Origin: an uncultured delta proteobacterium
Lineage (GTDB): Bacteria > Desulfobacterota > Binatia > Bin18
DNA length: 64,000 nt
NCBI GenBank assembly: GCA_963733195.1
Contig: CAVTCR010000070.1
Coordinates: 49,056-113,055 of the forward strand
Reading direction: 5' to 3'
In this document: piece after piece, positions 3,686-55,076 of the stretch
Layout: each line of letters begins with the position of its first letter
How positions within the stretch are numbered: position 1 is the first letter of the stretch
Made by a program: the position numbers and the translations under genes
The notes under the pieces: model-generated
Database searches by the model: none
The model's input: only the letters and a program-made list of their open reading frames with translations
What the model was told of the DNA's origin: nothing

Positions 3686-5383
3686 TTAATGACTCAATTC
3701 TTCAATCAGCGCCTTCGTCTCTTGCAAATCTTTCGTCTCGAACCCCTCAGTAAACCAGTTGTAGACCTCGGACAACAGCTTGTGAGCTTTGGTCCGCTTC
3801 CCTTGTTGTTGCCAGAGACGTGCGAGGCTCGCGGTGGCACGGAGTTCCCAAGATTTAGCTTGTTGCTTCTGGGCGATGTCGATCGCTTTGAGGAAGCAGA
3901 CTTCGGCCTCGGATTGGGTTTTGGGATTTAGGATCGGGGGTCTAGAATCTGAAATTTTTGATTTCTGACTTTTACCCTTTGACCATTCGACTACGCTCAC
4001 CTGTGCCTGCGGCACTGGCGCAGGCAGGATAAACTCCGGCAACGAAGCAATCTCTGTTTCAGGCAAAGATTGCTTCACTACACTCGCAATAACTTGCTCC
4101 TTTGAGTTTTTGGATAGTCCGTAAGTTCTATTCCGACGCCCCAAAGCAAGCTCCAGCTTTTCCAGCTTCTCTTCAGGACTATCGCTATTCTGGAATCCGA
4201 GCCTGTACTGCATGTGTTCAATCACCGGATACAGAGCACTGTTTTGGTGATACGGCGAATAGTGCAATTCCAGGCAGCTCGTACGCTCTTGCGTGAGAGA
4301 TTCTTTGAGCGCCTCGACCAGCCGTGATTTGCCAATGCCTGGCTCGCCGCTGAGCAGTACGACTTGCCCTGCACCATCTTTTACCTGTGTCCAGCGCTCT
4401 TGTAAGAGTCCGTACTCATGTTCGCGCCCGACCAGCGGCGTGAGCCCTTTGCGTGCGATGACCTGAAACCGACTGTGAGCTTCGCCCTCTTTGACTACAC
4501 GATAGAGCGTCAGCGGGGTCGAGATCCCTTTCAGTTCTGGACTGCCCCGGTCTTCGCACTCAATCAACCCTTCGACCAGGCGATACGTGGTTGTGCTGAT
4601 CACTACTTCATCGGGATTGGCCATTCCTTGCACCCGAGCGGCGATGTTCGGCGTCTCGCCCAGTGCGAGCTGCTCATGACGGCTGCCTCCGCCGATCTCT
4701 CCAATCACGACTAACCCGGTATGAATGCCGATGCGAACTTGCAAGAGTGGTGTAAGCGCGGGGTCTGTAGGGGCACGGCGCCGCCTTGCCCCTACGGTGG
4801 CCTGTATCTGATCGTTCAGGCGTGGCAATTCTGCGAAGATCTCTAACCCCGTTCGCACCGCCCGTCGCGCGTCATCTTCATGCGCAACTGGGTAACCGAA
4901 GTACACCAACAATCCATCGCCCAGATACTGCGCAAGGTAACCCTCATGCCGCTGGATGACCTGGGCACAAGTTTGCTGATACCGTTGCACGACGGTCCGG
5001 TAGTCTTCGGGATCAAGTTGTGTTGACAGCGCTGTTGAGCCCACTAGATCACAGAACATTACCGTGAGTTGGCGGCGTTCGGCGGCTGGGGACTGGGTGT
5101 TAGGTGTTGGGTGTTGGGGACTGAGAACTGACAACTGAGAACTGACGACTTCCTTTTCGCCTTTTGCCCCTTTCCCCTTTTCGCCCTCTTCTGCCGTCCC
5201 CACCAAAACCAGTACCTTGCCGTTTTCATCAGTAGCAAGGCGCTTGGCGTCGATGAGTTCGTCTTTCAGGGCGTCGAGTACGTCATCGTTCAGATTGAAT
5301 TCGAGCTTGAGGGCACGGTAGGAGACGCGCCCCTCGCGCTGAAGCCAAGCCATCGTTTGCGCTACGACTTGTGAAAATTTCAT
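3686..5383 (-). CDS. Class III adenylate/guanylate cyclase-AAA (STAND) protein, internally deleted relative to the paralog at 51603
   Basis: TVMFCDLVGST, YLGDG, NIAAR, Walker A GEPGIGKS and C-terminal AKSWELRA helix; Walker B and most TPRs are missing. Confidence 0.85.
   Translation of the reverse strand: MKFSQVVAQTMAWLQREGRVSYRALKLEFNLNDDVLDALKDELIDAKRLATDENGKVLVLVGTAEEGEKGKGAKGEKEVVSSQLSVLSPQHPTPNTQSPAAERRQLTVMFCDLVGSTALSTQLDPEDYRTVVQRYQQTCAQVIQRHEGYLAQYLGDGLLVYFGYPVAHEDDARRAVRTGLEIFAELPRLNDQIQATVGARRRRAPTDPALTPLLQVRIGIHTGLVVIGEIGGGSRHEQLALGETPNIAARVQGMANPDEVVISTTTYRLVEGLIECEDRGSPELKGISTPLTLYRVVKEGEAHSRFQVIARKGLTPLVGREHEYGLLQERWTQVKDGAGQVVLLSGEPGIGKSRLVEALKESLTQERTSCLELHYSPYHQNSALYPVIEHMQYRLGFQNSDSPEEKLEKLELALGRRNRTYGLSKNSKEQVIASVVKQSLPETEIASLPEFILPAPVPQAQVSVVEWSKGKSQKSKISDSRPPILNPKTQSEAEVCFLKAIDIAQKQQAKSWELRATASLARLWQQQGKRTKAHKLLSEVYNWFTEGFETKDLQETKALIEELSH
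3981..4093. repeat. Nested palindromic repeat composite inside the cyclase CDS
   Basis: GAAGCAATCT...AGATTGCTTC...CTCGCAAT family arm, plus a TTCGACTACGCTCA-GGATAAACT element carrying a 27-bp insert at 4000-4026. Confidence 0.75.
4767..4795. repeat. GTAG-type REP palindrome inside the cyclase CDS (degenerate sister at 5432-5460)
   Basis: GTAGGGGCACGGCGCCGCCTTGCCCCTAC, translated as VGARRRRAPT. Confidence 0.7.
5087..5187. repeat. Heptamer/octamer tandem repeats encoding the cyclase N-terminal linker
   Basis: GGGGACT/GGGTGTT/AGGTGTT/GAGAACT/GACAACT units followed by CCTTTTCG-like octamers. Confidence 0.7.
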
Positions 5384-31849: not shown

Positions 31850-32000
31850 TTCATGCTTCGATCCTTCGACAAGCTCAGGACAGGCTTGACCCTGAGGGGC
31901 ACGCTCTGCACGAACGGAAGGCGGTAGGAGCTAAAAACCGTTCACCCTGAGCCCTTCGGCTACGCTCAGGATAAACTACGCCCAGCGGATTCGAAGGCGA
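31850..32000. repeat. Composite palindromic repeat with two CCTTCG..GCTCAGGA elements
   Basis: TCCTTCGACAAGCTCAGGACAGGCTT (31862-31887) and CCCTTCGGCTACGCTCAGGATAAACT (31952-31977). Confidence 0.7.
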
Positions 32001-36924: not shown

Positions 36925-37068
36925 GTCATTGCGAGCCCTTCGTCAAGCTCAGGATAAACTGGGCGAAGCAATCTCTGCCTTATTTGTTGCGTTATACGAG
37001 ATTGCTTCGTCGCCGAAGCCTGTCCTGAGCGTAGCGGTAACGAAGTCGCAGGGGTTCCTCGCAATGAC
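36925..37068. repeat. GTCATTGCGAG-type palindromic element with nested inserts
   Basis: GTCATTGCGAG...GAAGCAATCTC / GAGATTGCTTCG...CTCGCAATGAC, with CCCTTCGTCAAGCTCAGGATAAACT in the left arm and a reverse copy in the right arm. Confidence 0.75.
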
Positions 37069-41165: not shown

Positions 41166-44100
41166 GTGGAAGTGACAGTCCTCCAGAGCAACTTCGCCCA
41201 ACTCGCAGAGCACGACGAGCAGCTCTTACGTCTGGGGCTGCTTGCGGAACGGTATTTCCCAGAAGATCCAAATACTTCGCTGCTCAAGTTGCGCCAGTTG
41301 ACAGAACTGCTCGCGCAGCATGTCGCGACCAATGTCGGTGCCTATGTGTCGACGGAGGAGGCGCAGTACGACCTCATTCGTCGCCTGCAAGATCAAGGCA
41401 TCCTTCCTCGCGAGATTGCCCAACTCTTCAGTGAAGTGAGGCGAGCAGGCAACGCCGCTAGCCATGCGCTGGTCGGAGATCATCGCACCGCGCTCGCAGC
41501 ACTCAAGATCACCTGGCAAATTGGCGTCTGGTTTCATCGCACCTTCAAGAATCCGGCATTTAAGTCTGGCGCTTTCATTCCACCGCAGGCTCCACGGGAT
41601 GAATCCGACGATCTGCGTGCTGAACTTGCGCGTCTGACCAGGGAGTTGGACGAGCATCGCGCTGCCCATCATGAAGTCGTGCAGCACCTCGAATCCACCG
41701 AAGCCAAGCTGCGCGAGGCTAAAGACGAACAGTCCTTCTGGGAACAGATGGCGGTCGAAGCCGAGAATGCTAAAGCCACGCTCGCCCAGCAGCTAGCGCA
41801 GCAGCAGGCGTTGACCGCCACGCAGTCAAAAGAAACTGTGGCTACGTTCGTTGCGGCTGCGAACACTGCTGCGACAGCAGTACATCTTGATGAGGCCGAG
41901 ACCCGTACACTCATCGACCAACAACTCCGCCAGGCAGGGTGGGAAGCCGACTCCGCGACCATCAGATACTCGACCGGTGCACGCCCCGAGAAGGGGAAGA
42001 ACCTGGCGATCGCCGAGTGGCCTACTGCGAGCGGCCCGGCTGATTACGTCCTCTTCGTTGGCCTCACGCCGATGGCTGCGGTCGAGGCCAAACGCAAGAA
42101 CACCGACGTCTCCGGCGCCTTACAACAAGCCAAGCGCTACAGCCGTGGATTCACTCCTAGTGAAGAGACAGCGTTGCATCCGGAGAACTGGGGTGCTGAA
42201 AACACTTACCGTTTGCCTTTTGTCTTCTCGTCCAACGGCCGCCCGTATCTGCGTCAACTCGCTACCAAAAGTGGTATCTGGTTTTGTGACGTGCGCCGTA
42301 CCGACAACCTCGGCCACGCGCTCGATGGCTGGTACACACCCGAAGGTTTGACCACCCTACTCAAGCGTGACGAGCAACGCGCGCACGACCAGCTTAAAAC
42401 CGAACCATTCAACTACGGCTTCTTGCTGCGCCACTACCAACAAGCCGCCATCCAAGCCGCAGAATCCGCCATCGCCCAGGGGCGACGCGAGATGTTGCTC
42501 GCCATGGCCACTGGCACCGGCAAGACTAAGACTTGTATCGCACTGATCTATCGCTTGCTCAAAGTGCAACGCTTCCGCCGCGTGCTCTTTCTCGTGGATC
42601 GTTCTGCACTCGGCGAACAAGCCGCCAACGCGTTCAAGGACACGCGAATGGAGAGCCTGCAGACCTTCGCCGACATCTTCGGCATCAAGGAACTCGACGA
42701 GCAGAAGCCCGACACTGACACCGCCGTGCATATCGCCACGGTGCAAGGTATGGTTCAACGCACGCTCTATCCAGGCGAGGATACGGCGCCGCCGGCCGTC
42801 GATCAGTACGACTGCATTGTCGTCGACGAGTGTCATCGCGGCTATCTACTCGATCGTGAACTGTCTGATACTGAACTCGGCTTCCGCAGCTTCGAAGACT
42901 ACATCTCGAAATATCGCCGCGTGCTGGATTACTTTGACGCCTACAAGATCGGTCTCACTGCCACTCCAGCCTTACATACCACGCAAATCTTCGGCACGCC
43001 GATCTATACTTACAGCTATCGCGAAGCAGTGATTGACGGTTATCTCGTTGACCATGAGCCACCGGTGCAGATCAACACTGAGCTGTCCACCGACGGTATC
43101 AAGTGGAGAGTCGGTGAAACAGTCTCTGTTTTCGACCCGCACCGCAACCAGATCGATCTCTTTACCACGCCCGATGAGATCAAGCTCGATATCGAGGACT
43201 TTAACCGTAAGGTCATTACCAGGCCATTCAACGAGGTCATCTGCAATTACCTGGCACAAGAACTCGACCCTGCTTCGCGTCAGAAAACTTTGATCTTCTG
43301 CGCCACTGACGCGCACGCGGATCTCGTTGTCGACTTGCTCAAGCAAGCGTTTAAGAACCACTACGGCACAGTCGACGACGATGCTGTTATCAAGATCACC
43401 GGCGCCGCCGATAAGCCGCTGCAACTGATCCGCCGCTACAAGAACGAGCGCAACCCGAACGTCGCTGTCACAGTGGACCTGTTGACCACCGGCGTGGATG
43501 TGCCCGAAATCTGTAACCTCGTCTTCCTACGCCGGGTCAATAGTCGCATCCTGTTCGACCAGATGCTTGGCCGCGCGACGCGTCTGTGCGAGGAGATTGG
43601 TAAAGAGACCTTCCGCATCTTCGATGCAGTGAAGATCTACGAAGCCCTGAAGGGCCTCACCGCAATGCAACCCGTGGTCATCAACCCAGCCATCAGCTTC
43701 ACCCAACTCGCCCGCGAGCTGACGCAGGTGACCAGCGACAAGGAACGCGCGCTCGTGCGCGACCAATTCGTCGCTAAACTCCAGCGCAAGAAGCGCCACT
43801 TGAGTGAAGCCAACACTCGCGACTTCGAAACCCGTGCCGGCATGCCGCCCGATGCCTTTCTTCGGAAGCTCCGCACTATGCCATTGACGGACATCGCGGC
43901 CTGGTTCACGCAGCATCCTGACCTTGGCGAAATCCTCGACCGCAAGGGAGAAGGGCGTGCGACCCCGGTCTTCATCTCCGAGCATCCTGACCAGTTGCTC
44001 AGCACCGAACGTGGCTATGGCAAGGCCAAGAAGCCGGACGACTACCTCAAGGAGTTCACCGCTTTCATCAATAGCCACCGCAACGACATCCCGGCGCTAC

Positions 44101-44548
44101 TCACCGTGCTCACCCGTCCGCGTGAACTCACTCGCAAACAATTGCGCGAACTCGCACTTAGAGCTGGACCAAGGCTGGTTACAGCGAGGTCAATCTCGCC
44201 ATCGCCTGGCGCGAGAAGACCAATCAAGACATTGCCGCACGTATCATCGGTTACATCCGTCAGGCTGCCATCGGTGATCCACTGTTGCCCTATGAGCAAC
44301 GGGTGGACAACGCTTTGCAGAAAATGCTCGCCTCGCGCGCCTGGTCCACGCCGCAGCGTCAGTGGTTACAGAAGATCGCCGCCCAGACCAAGGCCAACCT
44401 CATCGTCGATCGCGCTGCGCTCGATGACCCGGACCTCGTCTTCAAGCGCGAAGGTGGCGGCTTCACCCGGCTCGACCGTATCTTCGGTGGCGAACTCACG
44501 CAGGTACTCGAAACATTCAACGATGCTCTGTGGGAAGATGCAGCCTGA
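41166..44548 (+). CDS. hsdR: Type I restriction enzyme R subunit (EcoKI-like), frameshift near 44160
   Basis: ADYVLF...VEAKR nuclease, MATGTGKT, DECHR, TATP, LLTTGVD, QMLGRATR; C-terminus in ORF 44285-44548. Confidence 0.93.
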
Positions 44549-44557
44549 GTCAGAACT

Positions 44558-44672
44558 GTGAGGCTGGAATAAGCGGAGCGTTTCGGCGAGGAAAAGGATA
44601 CCGCCAGGAACGTTGTGGCATCCTGGCCTACGATGAGAGATCGTAGGCCGGAATAAGCGCAGCGTTTCCGGC
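44558..44672. repeat. REP array, left flank of RAYT
   Basis: Forward REPs at 44558-44587 and 44643-44672 (GTAGGCCGGAATAAGCGCAGCGTTTCCGGC); reverse arm 44603-44631 ending CCTAC. Confidence 0.88.
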
Positions 44673-44686
44673 AGTAGGATGTGCTC

Positions 44687-45206
44687 ATGAGTGACTATCG
44701 AAGGCTTTATATTCCTGGCGGCTCTTATTTCTTCACCGTAGTCACATATGAACGGCAGTATTTATTCACTACTGCGCAACGGGTGAAAGAGCTGCGTCAA
44801 GCATTTAGCTACGTCAAAATGCGCCGTCCCTTTGCTATTGTTGCAGCCGTCGTGCTCCCGGATCATCTTCACTGCTTGTGGCAATTACCGGATGGTGACT
44901 GCGATTTCTCGACTCGCTGGCAAATGATTAAGACGGAATTTTCACGACGCATTCCTTCGCCGGCAGGAAAGGATGGGGCAAAGACGATTTGGCAACCTCG
45001 CTTTTGGGAACATCGTGATTCGCGACGAAGAGGATTTTCGCCGTCATCTCGACTACATCCACTACAATCCAGTGAAGCATGGATTGGTGTCCGCTCCTGC
45101 AGCATGGCCGTACAGCTCTTTTCGGAAATTCGTCAGGATGCACTGGTATGACGTGGATTGGGGTGCTACAGAACCCAAAACTCTCGCTAACCTGGAATAC
45201 GAGTAG
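44687..45206 (+). mobile_element. REP-associated tyrosine transposase (RAYT, Y1 HUH), frameshift near 45015
   Basis: YRR..PGGSYFFTVVT, HUH LPDHLHCLW, WQPRFWEH; second frame IRDEEDF..HLDYIHYNPVKHGLV...WPYSSF. Confidence 0.92.
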
Positions 45207-45444: not shown

Positions 45445-46917
45445 ATGAGCACCATCACCCACGACATCGTCGCCAAACTGTGGAACCTCTGTAACGTCCT
45501 CAAGGACGACGGGGTCACCTATCACCAGTACGTCACCGAGCTGACCTATCTCTTGTTCCTCAAGATGGCCAAAGAGACCGGCACCGAGGAGCAGATTCCC
45601 ACCGGCCATCGTTGGGACGACCTCGAAGCCAAGGCTGCACCGGACCGTCTCGAAGCCTACAAACTCACCTTGATCCATCTCGGCAGCCACGGTTCCACGC
45701 TGGTGAAGGAGATCTTCGGCAACGCCAGTTCCTTCATCAAGAAACCCGCCACCCTCTCCACCCTCGTCGCCGAGATCGACAAACTCGACTGGTACAGCGC
45801 ACGGCAGGAAGGGCTGGGCGATCTCTACGAAGGCCTGCTGGAGAAGAACGCCAACGAGAAGAAATCTGGCGCCGGTCAGTACTTCACGCCCCGGCCGTTG
45901 ATCGACTGCATGGTGGCGGTGATGAAGCCGATGTTGCAAGACATCATCCAAGACCCTGCCGCTGGCACTGGTGGTTTTCTCATCGCCTCCAATCGGTACA
46001 TCCGTGAACACAGTGACCCCGATGCGTGGACGGAAGCGGAGCAGCGTAAATACCGCCGCAACACTTTCTTCGGCATGGAGCACGTACAGGACGCGCACCG
46101 CCTGGCGTTGATGAACCTGATGTTGCACGGGCTGGACTCCGACCCGCACGCTTCCGGCATTCGCTATGGAGATACACTCTCACCCGAAGGGCAAGCGCTG
46201 CCCAAGGCAACGCTCGTTCTCACCAATCCGCCGTTTGGCACCAAGAAAGGCGGCGGGTTGCCATCGCGCGATGACTTCACCTTTCCGACCAGCAACAAGC
46301 AGTTCTGCTTCCTCCAGCATATCTACCGTGCGCTCCTGCCCGGCGGTCGCGCGGAGTTGATTTTGCCCGACAACGTGCTGTTCGAGGGCAACGTCGGCAA
46401 ACAGATCCGTGCCGATCTCATGGACAAGTGCAACCTGCACACCATCCTGCGCCTGCCCACCGGCATCTTCTACGCCCAGGGCGTGAAGACCAACGTACTG
46501 TTCTTCACTCGTGGTGAGACGGACAAGGGCAACACCAAGGAAGTGTGGGTCTACGACCTGCGCGCCAACATGCCGCAGTTCGGTAAGCGCACCATGCTCA
46601 CGCGCCAGCACTTCGCCGAGTTCGAAGAGGCCTTCGGTGACGATCCGCTCGGCAGTCGCAACAGAGTCTGAAGAAACGCAAGGACACCGGCGAGGCTGGC
46701 CGCTTCCGTCGCTTCACCCGCGAATGGATCGCCGAACGTGGCGACAGTCTCGACATCGAGTTGGCTCAAGGACGAGAGCGACGGCGGCACGGACGAACTG
46801 CCGGAACCGGCCGCGCTCGCGCAGGAGGCGATGGGCGAACTCGAAGGCGCGATGGAAGAACTGCGCGGGATTCTGGAGGAGTTAGGTGAGGAGATAGATG
46901 AGGAGGTAGCGGCGTGA
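45445..46917 (+). CDS. hsdM: Type I R-M methyltransferase subunit (frameshifts in the 3' end)
   Basis: KLWNLCNVLKDDG, GQYFTPR, DPAAGTGGFL, NPPF, LRLPTGIFYAQGVKTN; stop overlaps the hsdS GTG. Confidence 0.93.
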
Positions 46918-48393
46918 GTGAGCTGCCTGCCGGATGGACATTGCGCTTGCGTATCGGCGACATTGCACGATGCGGTTCGGTGAATGTCCGATGCACTGCA
47001 CTCAGGGTGAGACTTCGGACGACTCGGAGTTCTACAGATTGCGACATTCGGATCTGTAGACTGAAGCAGAGCTGTGCGCAACTTCGCAGATGCGTGAGGA
47101 TATGTTGCGCAAGCAGTCGCACCGAGCTTACAAGACGGTGAAGCCGGTATTGCCTGCGCGACAGTGTACGCTAAGTTGGCGCAGCGATTACGCTGAATCG
47201 ACGTATGCTCAAGTCGGTTGAAGCTGCTCTTGACCGACACCAACTCATTCGGTCAAGTCGATCTCGATGAGTCGATACCGTCTTCGACATGCTTCTTACG
47301 TATGCGGACCTCACGAAGCTATGCGTACGAGCTGGACAACAGTCGCGCACGCTCGACACTCGGATGTCATCGAAGTCGTTCGAGGTTCCGCTTACCCCCG
47401 CTCAACGAACAGAAGCGCATCGCCGACAAGCTCGACGCGGTCCTCGCGCGGGTCGACGCCTGCCGCGAACGCCTCGACCGCGTCCCCGCCATCCTCAAAC
47501 GCTTCCGCCAATCCGTCCTCGCCGCCGCCACCTCCGGCAAGCTGACGGAGGAGTGGCGAGGACAGAGCATACGTGACTACAGCTATTGGAGTATGCACTC
47601 GTTGGCGAAGTTGCATCAAGGTCTCAATCGAGGGAAATCCTTATGCGGCTTCCAGAGTTGGCAATGGATGGCGCTCGCGATATCCAAGTGATTGGCAGGC
47701 ATACTGAGTGCCGCAATGCGCTATCGGACAATGAGCAAATGCTTACCGTACAGAGACTATGGATGCGTTGTGGCGTTATCGGGTTCGACGTACTGTGGAA
47801 GCGTGAATATTTACTCGCCTGCAGAGGATGGCAAAATTAGTCGTGGATCAGACAACGCGCTAATAGTACCGACACTGGATGAATCATCTTGACTGCAAAT
47901 CAGCTATATAGTATCTTAATGCATGGAAGCGAGTTAATCCTTCGAGCTCAAGTCGACTTCATCAACGGAATAGACCAGTCAAATTTACCGAGGTGAAAAT
48001 ATATCCGCATTCCCGATTCCAGTTGCCGCTCATTGGCCAGAGCAACACGAAATCGTCCGCCGTGTCGAAGCCCTCTTCGCCTACGCCGACCGCCTCGAAG
48101 CTCGCTACACCGCCGCCCGCGCCCAGGTCGAACGCCTGACACCTGCGCTGCTCGCCAAGGCCTTTCGCGGCGAACTGGTCCCCCAGGACCCGAACGACGA
48201 ACCCGCGTCGGTGTTGTTGGAACGTATCCACGCGCTTGGAGTAGGCCGGAATAAGCGTAGCGTTTCCGGCACGGAGGCAACCGCCGGGAACGGCCTGGGG
48301 CTCCTTCGACTGGGCTCACCTGTGCCTGCGGCACTGGCGCAGGCAGGACAGGCTTATCCCGGCCTACGAAAAAAGACTCGTGGAAAGACGTAG
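46914..48393 (+). CDS. hsdS: Type I R-M specificity subunit; conserved segments intact, both TRDs out of frame or garbled
   Basis: MSELPAGW; [14 protein letters not shown]...[19 protein letters not shown]; [13 protein letters not shown]...[23 protein letters not shown]. Confidence 0.85.
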
Positions 48394-48419
48394 GTCGGAA
48401 TAAGCGGAGCGTTTCCGGC
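48241..48419. repeat. REP doublet with 51-bp nested insert, followed by a forward REP
   Basis: Forward REP 48241-48270, reverse arm 48283-48367 (insert 48302-48352), forward REP 48390-48419. Confidence 0.88.
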
Positions 48420-48439
48420 AATGGCGCTGTGCCCAGGAT

Positions 48440-51602: not shown

Positions 51603-54600
51603 GTGCAGTGTACAGCGTGTGGTGCAGATAACCCTTCGGGAATGGTCTTCTGTGGACAGTGTGCCTGTCCCCTCCTTCAACTCTGTCAGCCGTGTGGATT
51701 TCAGAATCCAGGGCAAACGAAATTCTGTGGGCGGTGTGGAAGCCCCCTCACTGGTAGTGTGATCCTTGGGCGTGAACAGCAAACTCCACCGCAACGACAA
51801 AATGTTCCGGTGGAGAATGAGGAACAATTCCCAGTTGACGTTCGATTGCAAGCGCAAAGAATAGCGCTACGGCAGGGATTAGGGAGGCGCCAGTTAACGG
51901 TCATGTTCTGTGACCTGGTAGGATCAACCGCCCTCTCTCAGCAGGTGGAGCTTGAAGAGTTGCGCCAAGTGATCCAGGCCTATCATGATCTCTGTGCTGA
52001 GGTCATCGCTCGCTTTGACGGGTACCTCGCACGGTATCTCGGCGACGGAGCGTTAGTCTATTTTGGTTTCCCTGTTGCACATGAGGGAGATGCCTATCGA
52101 GCTGTCCGTGCAGGGTTGGAAATCATTGCTGCGTTACCACGACTCAATGCACGTTTGCAGAAGACTGTGGATAAGTTACGTACATTCCCTCTCCAGGTGC
52201 GTATCGGTATTCATACGGGGACAGTGGTGGCTGGAGAGGTCAAAACCGAAGGTGCGCGGGATCTTGTTGAAGTAGTCGGCGAGCCGCTCAACCTCTCTGC
52301 CCGTCTGCAGGAGATTGCCGAACCAAACAGTGTCGTTGTTTGTGCGACGACATTCCGACTTATCCAAGGGTTCTTCACCTGTCGTGCTCTAGGCACGCCC
52401 CCCCTCAAAGATGTTTCTGCGCCTCTGGCGGTTTATCAGGTGGTGGAAGAAAGTGAGGCACGTAGCCGCCTCGAAGTTGCGGCGACGAAAGGGCTGACGC
52501 CGTTGGTCGGAAGAGCGCAGCAATTAGCGACCTTGCTCGACCGTTGGCAACAGGCAAAATCAGGCGCTGGGCATGTAGTGTTACTAAGTGGTGAAGCAGG
52601 TATTGGAAAGTCTCGCCTTGTACAAGCATTGCGGGAACACGTGAGCGGGGAGTCTCAGACGTGGCTCGAATGTCATTGTTTCCCTTATCATCAGCACAGC
52701 GCGTTATACCCTGCTATCGACCTCTTGTGGCGTGGGCTCCGCTTAAAACGTTCCGATATTCCAGCCCAACAGTTAGAGAAACTTGAACGAGCGATCTCTG
52801 CGTATGGCTTATCACTGCCGGAAACTGTCCCGATTTTTGCTAACTGGCTTGGTCTACCGCTCCCACCAGATCGCTATGCCCCGTTTTCACTTCCACCACA
52901 GCAACAGCGCAGAGGGGTGCTCAATGGTCTACGGTTATGGTTGAGCAAAGCTGCTGAACGTGGGCCAGTGATCGGTGTGGTTGAGGATCTACAGTGGGCC
53001 GATCCCTCAACGTTAGAATCCCTCACGTTGTTTATGGAGCAAGTCCCGCTTGCGCCGATCTTGTTGGTGTTCACTTTTCGCCCTGATTTTCATGTCCCGT
53101 GGCGCTTCTCCTCGTATATGACACATCTGCCACTCAGCCGATTAGCGGACATAGAGGTTGAAGCAATGATTGCGCACGTCGCGCAGGGACGGGCGCTGTC
53201 ACCCGATACTCAAGCCCGATTAGTGAAAAAAGCTGATGGCGTCCCGCTGTTCGTCGAAGAATTGACCAAGATGGTGGCTGAGAGCGGCGCATTTGCGGCT
53301 CCCACTGCTGGGCAATCATCGCGATCTCCGGCTATCCCGACCACGCTGAACGATGTCCTCATGGCGCGACTTGATCGTTCGCAAGCGGCTAAGGAGATCG
53401 CGCAGCTTGGGGCAACGATCGGACGCGAGTTTTCCTATGAGTTGCTGCAAGCCGTGTCCTCGGTTGATGAGGACACGTTACAACGCGCACTAACAACACT
53501 CGTCGATGCCGAACTCTTGCATCAGCGTGGGGTGCCACCACGAGCGAGCTATTTTTTCAAGCACGCATTGATTCAGGACGTTGCGTATCAATCCCTGCTG
53601 AAACGAACCCAACGCCAATATCATCACCGTATCGCGCAGACATTAGAGGCGCGTTCTGTGGAACCCAGGGAGGCACAGCCAGAGGTCGTTGCCCATCACT
53701 ATACTGAGGCGCGTCTCCCTGAGCATGCCATTCGCTATTGGCAGTTAGCTGGGCAGAACGCGACTGAGCGATCTGCCCTTGCTGAAGCGACGCATCATTT
53801 TATGAAAGGCTTGGAACTTCTTCGTGGTCTTCCAGAAACGAACGAACGTAATCAGCAAGAGTTAACTTTACAGATGGCGCTTGGAGGACCATTGATTGCG
53901 ACTCACGGCTATGGGGCAGCGGGGGTTGAGCAGTGTTATGCACGAGCACTGGTGCTTTGCCGGCAGATCGGTGAGACCCCACGGTTGTTGCGGACCCTAC
54001 TCGGGATGGAAGCCTTCTATTTTATTCGCGCGCAACTGCGCACTGCCCAACAATTAGCCGAGCAGTGTTTTGGGCTTGCACAACAACAACAGCAGCCAGG
54101 GCCGCTTGTTCAAGCGCATTGGACGCTAGGACAGGCTCTCTTTCATCGAGGAAGATTTGTCGAGGCTCAATCGCATGTCGAGCGGGGCATTGCGCTGTAC
54201 ACGCCTGAACTGCATCAACCACGAGCGCTGCAAGACCCTGGCGTCATGTGTCTGGCGTACGCTGCGTTCACACAGTGGTGCTTAGGCTATCCTGAGCAAG
54301 CTTTCCACCGCAGCCAGCAAATGTTGGCGCTGGCGCGATCGCTTACGCATCGATTTAGTCTCGCATTTGCTTTGAATATTGCGGCGACTATACGGGTCTT
54401 ACGAGGAGAGATTACCGAGGCGGAGACGTTGACAACAGAAGGTATTGCGCTTTGCCAAGAGTACGGGTTCCCGGTGTGGATGGCATACGGGAAAGTGCTG
54501 CGCGGATGGATACACGGGCAGCGTGGCGCGCGCAGGCCGGCATGGGAGGAGTTACAGCGGGGGATCACAGAGTGGGAAGCCACCGGGGCGGAGGTTACGC

Positions 54601-55076
54601 GTACTGCATTTCTGGCGCTGTTAGGACATGCTTATGCGCGTATCGGTCAAGGAGACAAAGCACGAAAAACCATTGACCAGGCGTTGGCACTCGCTGAGCA
54701 GAATGAAGAGTTCTATGGAGTCACCGAACTATGGCGACTCAAAGGAGAACTGATTTTAAGAAAGTTCAAAGTTCAAAGTTCAAAGTTCAAAGTTGACAAT
54801 CTGCAATCTGCAATCTGTCTGCCCCCTCCGTCGGGGGGCAATCTGCAATTAGAAGCTGAGGAATGTTTTCATCGCGCGCTTGCCATTGCTCGCCAACAGC
54901 AGGCCAAAGCATTTGAACTACGGGCCGCACTGAGCTTGAGTCGTTTATGGAAGCGACAGGGGAAACGTGAACCGGCACAGCAACTCCTGTCGTCAGCCTA
55001 TGCGAAATTCACTGAAGGATTTACCATGCCGGATCTTCGTAGAGCACAGGTATTGTTAGCTCAACTTGATCATTAG
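51603..55076 (+). CDS. Double zinc ribbon + class III cyclase + AAA (STAND) + TPR protein
   Basis: CTACG...FCGQC, TVMFCDLVGST, YLGDG, GEAGIGKS, VEDLQWAD, GVPLFVEEL, FKHALIQD, ELRAALSLSRLW. Confidence 0.92.
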   Translation: MQCTACGADNPSGMVFCGQCACPLLQLCQPCGFQNPGQTKFCGRCGSPLTGSVILGREQQTPPQRQNVPVENEEQFPVDVRLQAQRIALRQGLGRRQLTVMFCDLVGSTALSQQVELEELRQVIQAYHDLCAEVIARFDGYLARYLGDGALVYFGFPVAHEGDAYRAVRAGLEIIAALPRLNARLQKTVDKLRTFPLQVRIGIHTGTVVAGEVKTEGARDLVEVVGEPLNLSARLQEIAEPNSVVVCATTFRLIQGFFTCRALGTPPLKDVSAPLAVYQVVEESEARSRLEVAATKGLTPLVGRAQQLATLLDRWQQAKSGAGHVVLLSGEAGIGKSRLVQALREHVSGESQTWLECHCFPYHQHSALYPAIDLLWRGLRLKRSDIPAQQLEKLERAISAYGLSLPETVPIFANWLGLPLPPDRYAPFSLPPQQQRRGVLNGLRLWLSKAAERGPVIGVVEDLQWADPSTLESLTLFMEQVPLAPILLVFTFRPDFHVPWRFSSYMTHLPLSRLADIEVEAMIAHVAQGRALSPDTQARLVKKADGVPLFVEELTKMVAESGAFAAPTAGQSSRSPAIPTTLNDVLMARLDRSQAAKEIAQLGATIGREFSYELLQAVSSVDEDTLQRALTTLVDAELLHQRGVPPRASYFFKHALIQDVAYQSLLKRTQRQYHHRIAQTLEARSVEPREAQPEVVAHHYTEARLPEHAIRYWQLAGQNATERSALAEATHHFMKGLELLRGLPETNERNQQELTLQMALGGPLIATHGYGAAGVEQCYARALVLCRQIGETPRLLRTLLGMEAFYFIRAQLRTAQQLAEQCFGLAQQQQQPGPLVQAHWTLGQALFHRGRFVEAQSHVERGIALYTPELHQPRALQDPGVMCLAYAAFTQWCLGYPEQAFHRSQQMLALARSLTHRFSLAFALNIAATIRVLRGEITEAETLTTEGIALCQEYGFPVWMAYGKVLRGWIHGQRGARRPAWEELQRGITEWEATGAEVTRTAFLALLGHAYARIGQGDKARKTIDQALALAEQNEEFYGVTELWRLKGELILRKFKVQSSKFKVDNLQSAICLPPPSGGNLQLEAEECFHRALAIARQQQAKAFELRAALSLSRLWKRQGKREPAQQLLSSAYAKFTEGFTMPDLRRAQVLLAQLDH
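54761..54850 (+). repeat. Heptamer arrays plus a 21-bp hairpin insert inside the cyclase CDS
   Basis: (AAAGTTC)x4, GCAATCT-type units, insert GTCTGCCCCCTCCGTCGGGGG at 54817-54837. Confidence 0.75.

Follow-up and report, generated by a model that had tools for sequence, protein, structure and literature searches.

A 27-nt hairpin repeat lodged at one position of a second short repeat: a candidate micro-insertion element in a Binatia genome and in Chloroflexota

Introduction

What brings a sequence of only 27 nt to exactly the same place in two different copies of another repeat? The question is raised by a 64,000-nt stretch of DNA (the window) from contig CAVTCR010000070.1 (positions 49,056-113,055) of an uncultured delta proteobacterium of the class Binatia (assembly GCA_963733195.1), in which two identical copies of a hairpin-forming sequence, hereafter the 27-mer, lie at 4000..4026 and 48319..48345, each embedded in a different copy of a second short repeat, hereafter H. 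A preliminary description, made from the letters of the window, had proposed independent, site-specific insertion of a tiny non-autonomous element reminiscent of the small dispersed repeats (SDRs) of Nostoc-type cyanobacteria. Here we follow this proposal through the genome of origin, its relatives and other phyla. The 27-mer was found as an exact 27-nt gain at defined sites, with fixed polarity, in several unrelated hosts, with empty and filled alleles and with nesting. We consider it very likely that these are precise, site-specific and independent insertions; the fuller reading that in our view best explains the whole, by which the 27-mer is a true micro-insertion element, non-autonomous and active in the recent past, has about an even chance of being right.

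Results

The 27-mer and its two copies in the window

The 27-mer, CCTGTGCCTGCGGCACTGGCGCAGGCA, consists of a CCTG tag followed by a hairpin with an 8-bp stem (TGCCTGCG/CGCAGGCA) and a 7-nt loop (GCACTGG). As the preliminary description had reported, the two copies, both on the forward strand, are identical: a scan of the window at up to 3 mismatches returned these two exact matches only, and none of 100 dinucleotide shuffles contained any. Folded as single-stranded DNA, the 27-mer reaches -12 kcal/mol (z = -3.6), with an equally good fold in 1 of 200 shuffles. It is not terminator-like, and no Rfam family matches the region. Its length is 3 x 9 nt, i.e. nine codons, and none of its six reading frames contains a stop codon, so that insertion into a gene keeps the reading frame open. 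The boundary of the insert is ambiguous by 2 bases, since one CA stands immediately before the insert and another forms its last two letters; a 25-nt element with duplication of CA would fit as well as one of 27 nt.

The host repeat H is 22-24 nt long, with the form CCTTCGAC-N3-4-GCTCA^GGACAGGC (^ marks the junction), and was searched for with the pattern CCTTCG-R-Y-N3-4-GCTCA^GG-R-Y-A-R-R-C. Both window copies sit at GCTCA^GGA of what had been described as a TTCG..GCTCAGGA repeat, in hosts of different subtypes, and this account was borne out. At copy 1 the left half of H (TTCGACTACGCTCA) occupies 3986..3999 (+) and the right half (GGATAAACT subtype) 4027..4035 (+), giving TTCGACTACGCTCA^GGATAAACT. 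At copy 2 the left half (TTCGACTGGGCTCA) occupies 48305..48318 (+) and the right half (GGACAGGCT subtype) 48346..48354 (+), giving TTCGACTGGGCTCA^GGACAGGCT; here the right half overlaps the start of an inverted repetitive extragenic palindrome (REP) with a GTAG tag. The three empty hosts listed at the outset are also real: one at 31863..31886 (+; full repeat CCTTCGACAAGCTCA^GGACAGGCT) with a match at 31865 (TTCGACAAGCTCA^GGACAGGCT), one at 31953..31977 (+; CCTTCGGCTACGCTCA^GGATAAACT) with a match at 31955 (TTCGGCTACGCTCA^GGATAAACT), and one at 36937..36960 (+; CCTTCGTCAAGCTCA^GGATAAACT) with a match at 36939 (TTCGTCAAGCTCA^GGATAAACT).

Copy 1 is not a clean in-frame insertion. It sits in a repeat mosaic, with no tandem array at the copy, at the point where a cyclase/AAA_16 gene (3686-5383, -) has lost ~625 aa internally; the 565-aa frame of this gene aligns to residues 95-431 and 1057-1157 of a 1157-aa paralogue (51603-55076) and is open across the mosaic. 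In same-genus genomes the flanks of the two window copies are not conserved, so that no orthologous empty site for either copy was recovered there.

Copies in the genome of origin are uniform and lie in many contexts

The assembly to which the window belongs comprises 6.95 Mb in 87 contigs. A genome-wide search with tabulated flanks, which had been set down beforehand as the way to check the proposal, returned 37 copies of the 27-mer (up to 3 mismatches) on 25 contigs, 30 of them exact and 7 with one mismatch, i.e. 7 substitutions in 999 nt; a reversed-pattern control gave 0 matches. A few more decayed copies, carrying indels, are present as well. The insertion point is CTCA^GG of H in 36 of the 37 copies: CTCA precedes the 27-mer in 36 copies and GCTCA in 31, GG follows it in 35 of 37, and TTCG lies upstream in 36 of 37. 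Orientation relative to the host is constant in all 37, and most copies are intergenic. The host bases around the copies comprise 23 distinct left 14-mers and 9 distinct right 9-mers, so that the insert is far more uniform than its host repeats.

The 60 + 60 nt flanks of the copies fall into between 26 clusters (loosest criterion) and 36 clusters (strictest). When the 27-mer was removed in silico, 26 of the 37 sites matched one or more other places in the genome without a gap across the junction, the best of these empty paralogues matching over 68 nt at 97% identity and over 94 nt at 94.7% identity. The 9-mer formed by GGACAGGC and a following T or C stands directly after GCTCA, and is thus empty, at 23 places, and directly after the end of the element, and is thus filled, at 19; among the 42 H sites of this GGACAGGC subtype, 19 (~45%) are therefore occupied.

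Filled and empty orthologous sites, a further comparison suggested at the start, were obtained for one site. We compared contigs of four public runs with a region that carries two copies (G000:C9:69300-77400), and a 398-nt contig with 6 differences omits exactly 27 nt. It covers positions 717-1142 of locus L108, with the gap at 1036, and comes from a strain ~98.5% identical. At the second site (L108 7054) a 4466-nt contig also omits 27 nt with only 26 letters past the gap, which is below our bridging rule, and this site is not counted. For the window copies themselves no such comparison was recovered.

These data bear on the possibility that no insertion took place at all, the copies being a conserved functional motif or having arisen passively by duplication of one composite. 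A few duplicated composites do exist: a pair on C84 lies within a 216-bp inverted repeat (97% identity), and the C14/C51 and C7/C86 pairs have common flanks. Close pairs of the 27-mer are either direct (C59) or within the duplicated 216-bp composite. Against passive duplication stand the flank clusters, at least 26 in number, the empty paralogues together with the empty orthologue, the absence of terminator-like character or of any Rfam family, and a stepwise series of mutS alleles that is set out below, and we give this explanation next to no likelihood. The preliminary description had held that its proposal would be refuted if these were the only two copies and stemmed from one duplicated or gene-converted composite, or if the flanks showed no target preference; there are 37 copies, with a clear flank preference. 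Together with a second type of host, also described below, the same observations uphold its proposal of independent insertion. As a separate observation, the 216-bp inverted repeat with H and the 27-mer on C84 (G000:C84; L106 1205-1420 and 5786-6001) encloses 4.4 kb of monooxygenase genes, an arrangement like that of a composite cassette.

The 27-mer is rare among relatives and has its main reservoir in Chloroflexota

Two of 40 relatives carry the 27-mer: a same-genus genome, a fragmented assembly that is 84% complete, with 1 exact copy, and genome G010 with 1 copy at 2 mismatches. Across the class it occurs in 3 of 401 genomes, the genome of origin included (its own genus and one other), and in 0 of 300 other genomes sampled from the phylum, with 112 families covered. 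A second same-genus genome, G002 (100% complete), holds decayed copies only, one of them a 26-nt remnant. At another G002 locus (L121; G002:C102:14300-14750) 25 extra nt split the loop of the 27-mer; they start with CCTG and end like the right half of H, as in a nested insertion or a rearrangement.

A scan of named species, made with the 23-nt hairpin core, matched at least 96 stretches, 80 of which were listed, from 40 assemblies. Among the matches listed, 37 of the assemblies bear Chloroflexota-type labels, with 1 labelled Deltaproteobacteria, 1 Verrucomicrobia and 1 'bacterium', and the five Chloroflexota genomes in which we counted copies hold 10, 9, 16, 9 and 16. Viral contigs gave 0 matches and plasmids chance-level matches only. 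The main reservoir of the 27-mer is Chloroflexota.

The genome of origin encodes LpxC and four Omp85-family loci, one of which is only 1.1 kb away from a copy of the 27-mer on C59. The host is therefore a diderm and not a member of the Chloroflexota, and the copies are not on contaminant contigs. The repeat HIP1 (highly iterated palindrome 1) occurs 255 times in this genome, with no enrichment of the cyanobacterial type. The likeness to the SDRs of Nostoc noted at the outset thus fits as far as behaviour is concerned; the host, with its HIP1 count, LpxC and Omp85, is no Nostoc-type cyanobacterium, and the main reservoir lies in Chloroflexota. The 27-mer probably entered the genus horizontally and then underwent a burst in the species of origin. 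Such an entry would be an arrival from a Chloroflexota-dominated pool into an outer-membrane bacterium bearing lipopolysaccharide, followed by multiplication to at least 37 copies.

The target is an asymmetric motif for which H supplies the favoured site

H has a far wider distribution in the lineage of origin: 20 of 40 relatives have matches, and within the family 16 of 24 genomes do, with up to 119 copies per genome and 0 matches to the reversed control. H, too, is an insertion, a micro-repeat able to move or expand that has long been part of the lineage and is older than the 27-mer. In one relative H forms tandem arrays with a 24-nt period (G025:C2:43528-43743 and C37:404504-404718), and elsewhere an inverted H interrupts H at the identical GCTCA^G position (G003:C278:9489-9535, G003:C406:70-116 and G013:C335:1980-2026).

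Among 82 non-redundant foreign copies of the 27-mer, the five bases before CCTG are G in 65, C in 63, T in 69, C in 81 and A in 77, and the element is followed by G in 64 and then G in 56. Flanks are H-like in 51 of 80 non-redundant foreign copies. The 23 contexts other than H all have C at position -2, and 20 of the 23 have A at -1; T stands at -3 in 15, C or T at -4 in 21 and G at -5 in 17. On the other side a purine stands at +1 in 22 of 23, with A as frequent as G, and no conservation extends further 3'. The target is therefore G-Y-T-C-A^R, an asymmetric motif, and the site that it favours is found in the GCTCA^GG core of H. The foreign copies, too, keep one orientation relative to their flanks, with one loop-flipped copy (L067) among 96.

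A second host, unrelated to H, is the palindrome CCCCATTTC-GAAGTTCA-GAAATGGGG, which is filled at TTCA^G or TACA^G in L054, L060, L007, L063 and L081 and of which empty copies occur in four genomes (G401, G403, G407 and G408). In a third context, seen at three loci of two Chloroflexota assemblies (L045, L068 and L080), the 27-mer lies in the T-loop (TTCA^AGT) of tRNA-like 3' fragments; ARAGORN called no tRNA at any of these three loci.

Genes also serve as hosts. Open frames of at least 250 codons contain 38 of the 96 foreign copies, and all eight of the 27-mer-bearing frames that were scanned are recognisable genes, i.e. those for ComEC, MutS2, a beta-CASP nuclease, a DUF1616 protein, MutS, an ABC exporter, a heparinase-like protein and a molybdopterin oxidoreductase. 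For mutS we compared the orthologues of four Chloroflexota genomes (L067:4745-4846, L136:2335-2412, L135:2317-2370 and L137:2374-2427), whose proteins are 76-79% identical. Two of them have no insert (..ELTET^LRGE..), one of these two frames holding two stop codons; a third has gained 24 nt, which is H alone, translated LRQGSGQA; and that of L067 has gained 51 nt, which is H plus the 27-mer, translated LRQSS-PVPAPVPQA-GQA. All of these insertions are in frame. The mutS genes form a stepwise nested series (empty, H only, H plus 27-mer) at one orthologous site.

The variety of these contexts is relevant to a possible RNA intermediate, in which a hairpin transcript would be inserted or reverse-spliced into an RNA or DNA strand, with reverse transcription and recombination then making the insertion permanent; insertion of this kind has reportedly been proposed for the SDRs of cyanobacteria. 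The resemblance to SDR behaviour, the strictly constant orientation, the presence of a tRNA-like T-loop among the insertion contexts and the T-G wobble pairs kept in the stem of several variants would all suit such a route. Other variants, however, give A-C mismatches on the same strand, so that there is no consistent covariation of the RNA type, and the copies in the genome of origin are mostly intergenic. No Rfam family matches the region, and no reverse transcriptase is linked to the 27-mer, though no search aimed at one was made. On balance we regard an RNA route as improbable.

Separate REP systems probably do not account for the 27-mer

The statement that no mobilising enzyme is evident in the window needs a qualification. 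A REP-associated tyrosine transposase (RAYT) is encoded at 44681-45151, between hsdR (41166-44561) and hsdM (45445-46671) of a type I restriction system, and scores 131.7 bits against NF047646 (cut-off 80). The gene is, however, flanked by its own GTAG-tagged REPs, at 44643, 45242, 45324 and 45399, and not by the 27-mer. Eight of the ten such REPs in the genome are on this contig. Three more RAYT-like loci (C57:30168-30629, C62:139132-139584 and C26:75616-75792) each have their own distinct REP type, i.e. the genome carries several separate REP/RAYT systems.

Could the 27-mer be an ordinary REP, moved by a RAYT, that landed in H by chance? Its layout fits, being a tetranucleotide followed by a GC-rich hairpin of REP size, and RAYTs are at hand, the one in the window and a second on C57. 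Copy 2 lies 3.2 kb from the window RAYT and is bracketed, as part of its context and outside the element, by a GTAG-tagged REP at 48241..48271 (+) and an inverted one at 48352-48369 (-), the pair enclosing H. REPs within small palindromes and in frame in genes are also on record (PMC3733652). The tag, however, is CCTG and not GTAG or CGTC, inverted doublets are absent, and the 27-mer lies beside none of the four RAYT-like loci; a wider set, the 7 PF01797 loci and 3 further RAYT-like loci of the genome of origin, is likewise free of it. RAYTs are widespread in relatives without the 27-mer. Moreover, the 27-mer is identical across species and phyla, unlike REP/RAYT systems, which are described as vertically inherited (10.1101/2022.05.22.493013). 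The REP/RAYT relationship fails its defining tests, and we consider this explanation highly improbable.

Two side observations concern the surroundings of copy 2. The region 3' of hsdM (46700-48420) looks decayed, with a 157-aa frame (47218-47691) that has no Pfam match, followed by a REP cluster. Judged from its sequence, this frame may be a fragment of a specificity subunit.

Proposed enzymatic movement as a single strand and the case for templated copying

DNA is stiff, and so short a duplex cannot bring its two ends together. As a duplex of 25-27 bp is too short to circularise or to pair its ends, the 27-mer would have to travel in single-stranded form, as DNA or RNA, or else arise by copying of an existing copy. 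In the route that we favour, it would move as a single strand under the action of a nuclease and strand-transferase supplied in trans, with chemistry of the IS200/IS605 or RAYT kind. Such an enzyme would cut after CA both at the 3' end of the element and at the target, and the hairpin and CCTG tag would act as the recognition module. For this single-strand enzymatic route specifically, our confidence falls somewhat short of even.

Several other arrangements were tried and rejected. A miniature inverted-repeat transposable element (MITE) of the DDE type could have the imperfect 8-nt inverted ends and the possible CA duplication, but orientation is fixed in 37 of 37 copies, and 25 bp would be too short for duplex ends to pair. 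A parent element with split ends was rejected, as no separated left and right halves occur in the genome of origin. Targeting of hairpin loops within H found no support: under RNA folding parameters the junction falls in a loop in 9 of 37 hosts, against a background of 20%.

A series of results weighs against the enzymatic route. No mobilising gene for the 27-mer was found in searches of the genome of origin, its relatives and the foreign loci. The 27-mer flanks none of the four RAYT-like loci in the genome of origin, the ends of six IS200/IS605 copies there are unrelated to it, and nothing within 6 edits of it lies within 1.5 kb of 17 Y1 genes from six genomes. The search for HUH/Y1 recombinase genes flanked by the same hairpin, which the preliminary description had suggested, thus found none among these genes and loci. 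RAYT-type genes above the cut-off occur in 18 of 41 relatives, most of them without the 27-mer. A tblastn search of 96 foreign loci (676 kb) with the Y1 proteins of the genome of origin detected no Y1 gene, and no mobile gene recurred beside the 27-mer when the 2326 open frames of these loci were clustered; the largest neighbour cluster comprised 13 frames from 11 loci, and its one scanned member is an ABC exporter. Neither a head-to-tail dimer nor a circle junction of the 27-mer was seen at any locus or in the genome of origin, and the 27-mer has a single hairpin, not one at each end. Known single-strand transposons show a strand bias relative to GC skew, towards the lagging-strand template; orientation of the 27-mer agrees with local GC skew in 19 of 37 copies, i.e. 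without bias, in what is a crude test on contigs. Finally, all copies in the genome of origin are in H, though G-Y-T-C-A-R sites may, by estimate and not by count, far outnumber H sites, and a homology-driven process would give the same confinement.

One type of long gene may be mentioned here in its own right. Five Chloroflexota genomes each have one such gene, with open frames of 492-603 codons (L134:1462-2931 (-), and loci in G401, G402, G404 and G405). The one that was scanned, L134 (called frame 489 aa), has a weak receiver-like N-terminus fused to a C-terminal IS200-like Y1 transposase domain. The genome of origin contains no long Y1 frame of this receiver-fusion kind.

The homology-driven process in question would need no dedicated enzyme, the copying being guided by homology or microhomology: a nascent strand, in the course of replication or repair, would switch to a filled copy of H, pairing via GCTCA, copy the hairpin and return via the terminal CA or the right half of H, and biased gene conversion would spread the insert. 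The failure to find an enzyme agrees with this, as do the absence of replication-strand bias, the donor-like H flanks of all 37 copies in the genome of origin and of 51 among 80 non-redundant foreign copies, and the peak of flank conservation beside the junction. The CA ambiguity fits a 2-nt return microhomology, and ongoing conversion would also hold copies identical. Templated copying does not, however, sit well with the host bases beside the insert, which are not co-converted (23 left 14-mers and 9 right 9-mers), or with the same 27-nt boundaries in unrelated hosts, i.e. the palindrome, the tRNA-like T-loop and coding genes. Outside H, a purine stands at +1 in 22 of 23 cases, with A as frequent as G, unlike the GG of a donor. 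The sequence does not differ between two phyla, nor between Chloroflexota species with MutS proteins of only 76-79% identity, and identity across species so diverged requires constraint or drive. In addition, homology of 5 + 2 nt is very short for repeated exact events. We judge templated copying to be unlikely, though far from negligible. An enzyme acting on a single strand is favoured because the boundaries are identical in unrelated hosts, the +1 purine is not matched to a donor, and the sequence is invariant across deeply diverged species.

Discussion

The wider picture that these results suggest is more tentative than the insertions themselves. H and the 27-mer may represent a widespread and previously undescribed class of micro-elements, 3n in length and free of stop codons, that pass horizontally between phyla, nest at a GCTCA^G hotspot, colonise core genes (mutS, mutS2 and comEC) and are moved by an enzyme encoded elsewhere, possibly a housekeeping or domesticated nuclease; we hold this to be possible, with the odds against it. 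If it is true, the 27-mer parasitises a parasite and ranks with the smallest known mobile elements that spread horizontally; it is in any case among the smallest mobile DNA elements seen. The material provides natural experiments, i.e. filled and empty alleles in one population, a single-copy gene in three states, and dozens of genomes with and without the element, by which the mobilising function could be traced through phylogenetic profiling and tested with oligonucleotides. Micro-insertions that add 8-17 residues to conserved proteins such as MutS bear on annotation and on protein evolution, and the exact 27-nt sequence is a sensitive marker for DNA exchange between phyla.

How does the 27-mer compare with known small mobile sequences? 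The palindromic elements of Rickettsia, to which PMC3733652 refers, are said to be palindromic repeats inserted in frame in protein-coding genes. Like them, the 27-mer is found in frame within real genes, which it leaves unbroken; unlike them, it is much shorter, is nested in another micro-repeat and occurs in other phyla.

With the IS200/IS605 family and its gene-less derivatives (palindrome-associated transposable elements, PATEs), the 27-mer shares insertion 3' of a fixed motif of 4-5 nt with little constraint on the 3' side. A hairpin and fixed polarity are also common to it and IS200/IS605; no clear target duplication is seen, though the CA ambiguity would equally allow one of 2 nt. It differs in having a single hairpin, in being several-fold smaller, in having no cognate TnpA with the same ends and in showing no GC-skew bias.

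REPs carry a GTAG or CGTC tag beside a palindrome (PMC3733652). Like REPs and their paired forms (REPINs), the 27-mer is a short tag with a GC-rich hairpin, non-autonomous and present in tens of copies, and like the REPs described in the same source it lies inside palindromes and within genes. Unlike them, it has the tag CCTG, forms no inverted doublets, flanks no RAYT and is not lineage-specific.

The closest parallel is with the SDRs, to which we liken the 27-mer in its behaviour. Elhai et al. (2008) reportedly described SDR1-8 of the Nostocaceae, dispersed repeats of 21-27 nt; the 27-mer is within this size range, and its copies are likewise dispersed (37 on 25 contigs). As with SDRs, there are nested insertions (L121 of G002, and H within H). 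SDR5 inserts precisely (PMC4390886) between nucleotides 3 and 4 of HIP1, and the 27-mer similarly enters one exact position of another short repeat. Unlike SDRs, the 27-mer has hosts that are not cyanobacteria, its host repeat is H and not HIP1, its holders include at least 37 Chloroflexota-labelled assemblies as well as an unrelated diderm genus, and it is often in frame within genes. PMC5861425 reports no SDR-like repeats outside the Nostocaceae, to which SDRs were thought to be confined. In the literature that we searched, on SDRs, REPINs and nested hairpin repeats, nothing was found on such elements in Chloroflexota, and the core of neither the 27-mer nor H was found in print (supplements lay outside the search). 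How repeats of 20-30 nt move has been a standing question since the SDRs of cyanobacteria, and SDR-like behaviour is now seen in two unrelated phyla. What is new relative to SDRs is the occurrence in other phyla, the identity of the sequence across phyla, the nesting in a second micro-repeat and the frequent in-frame position in genes.

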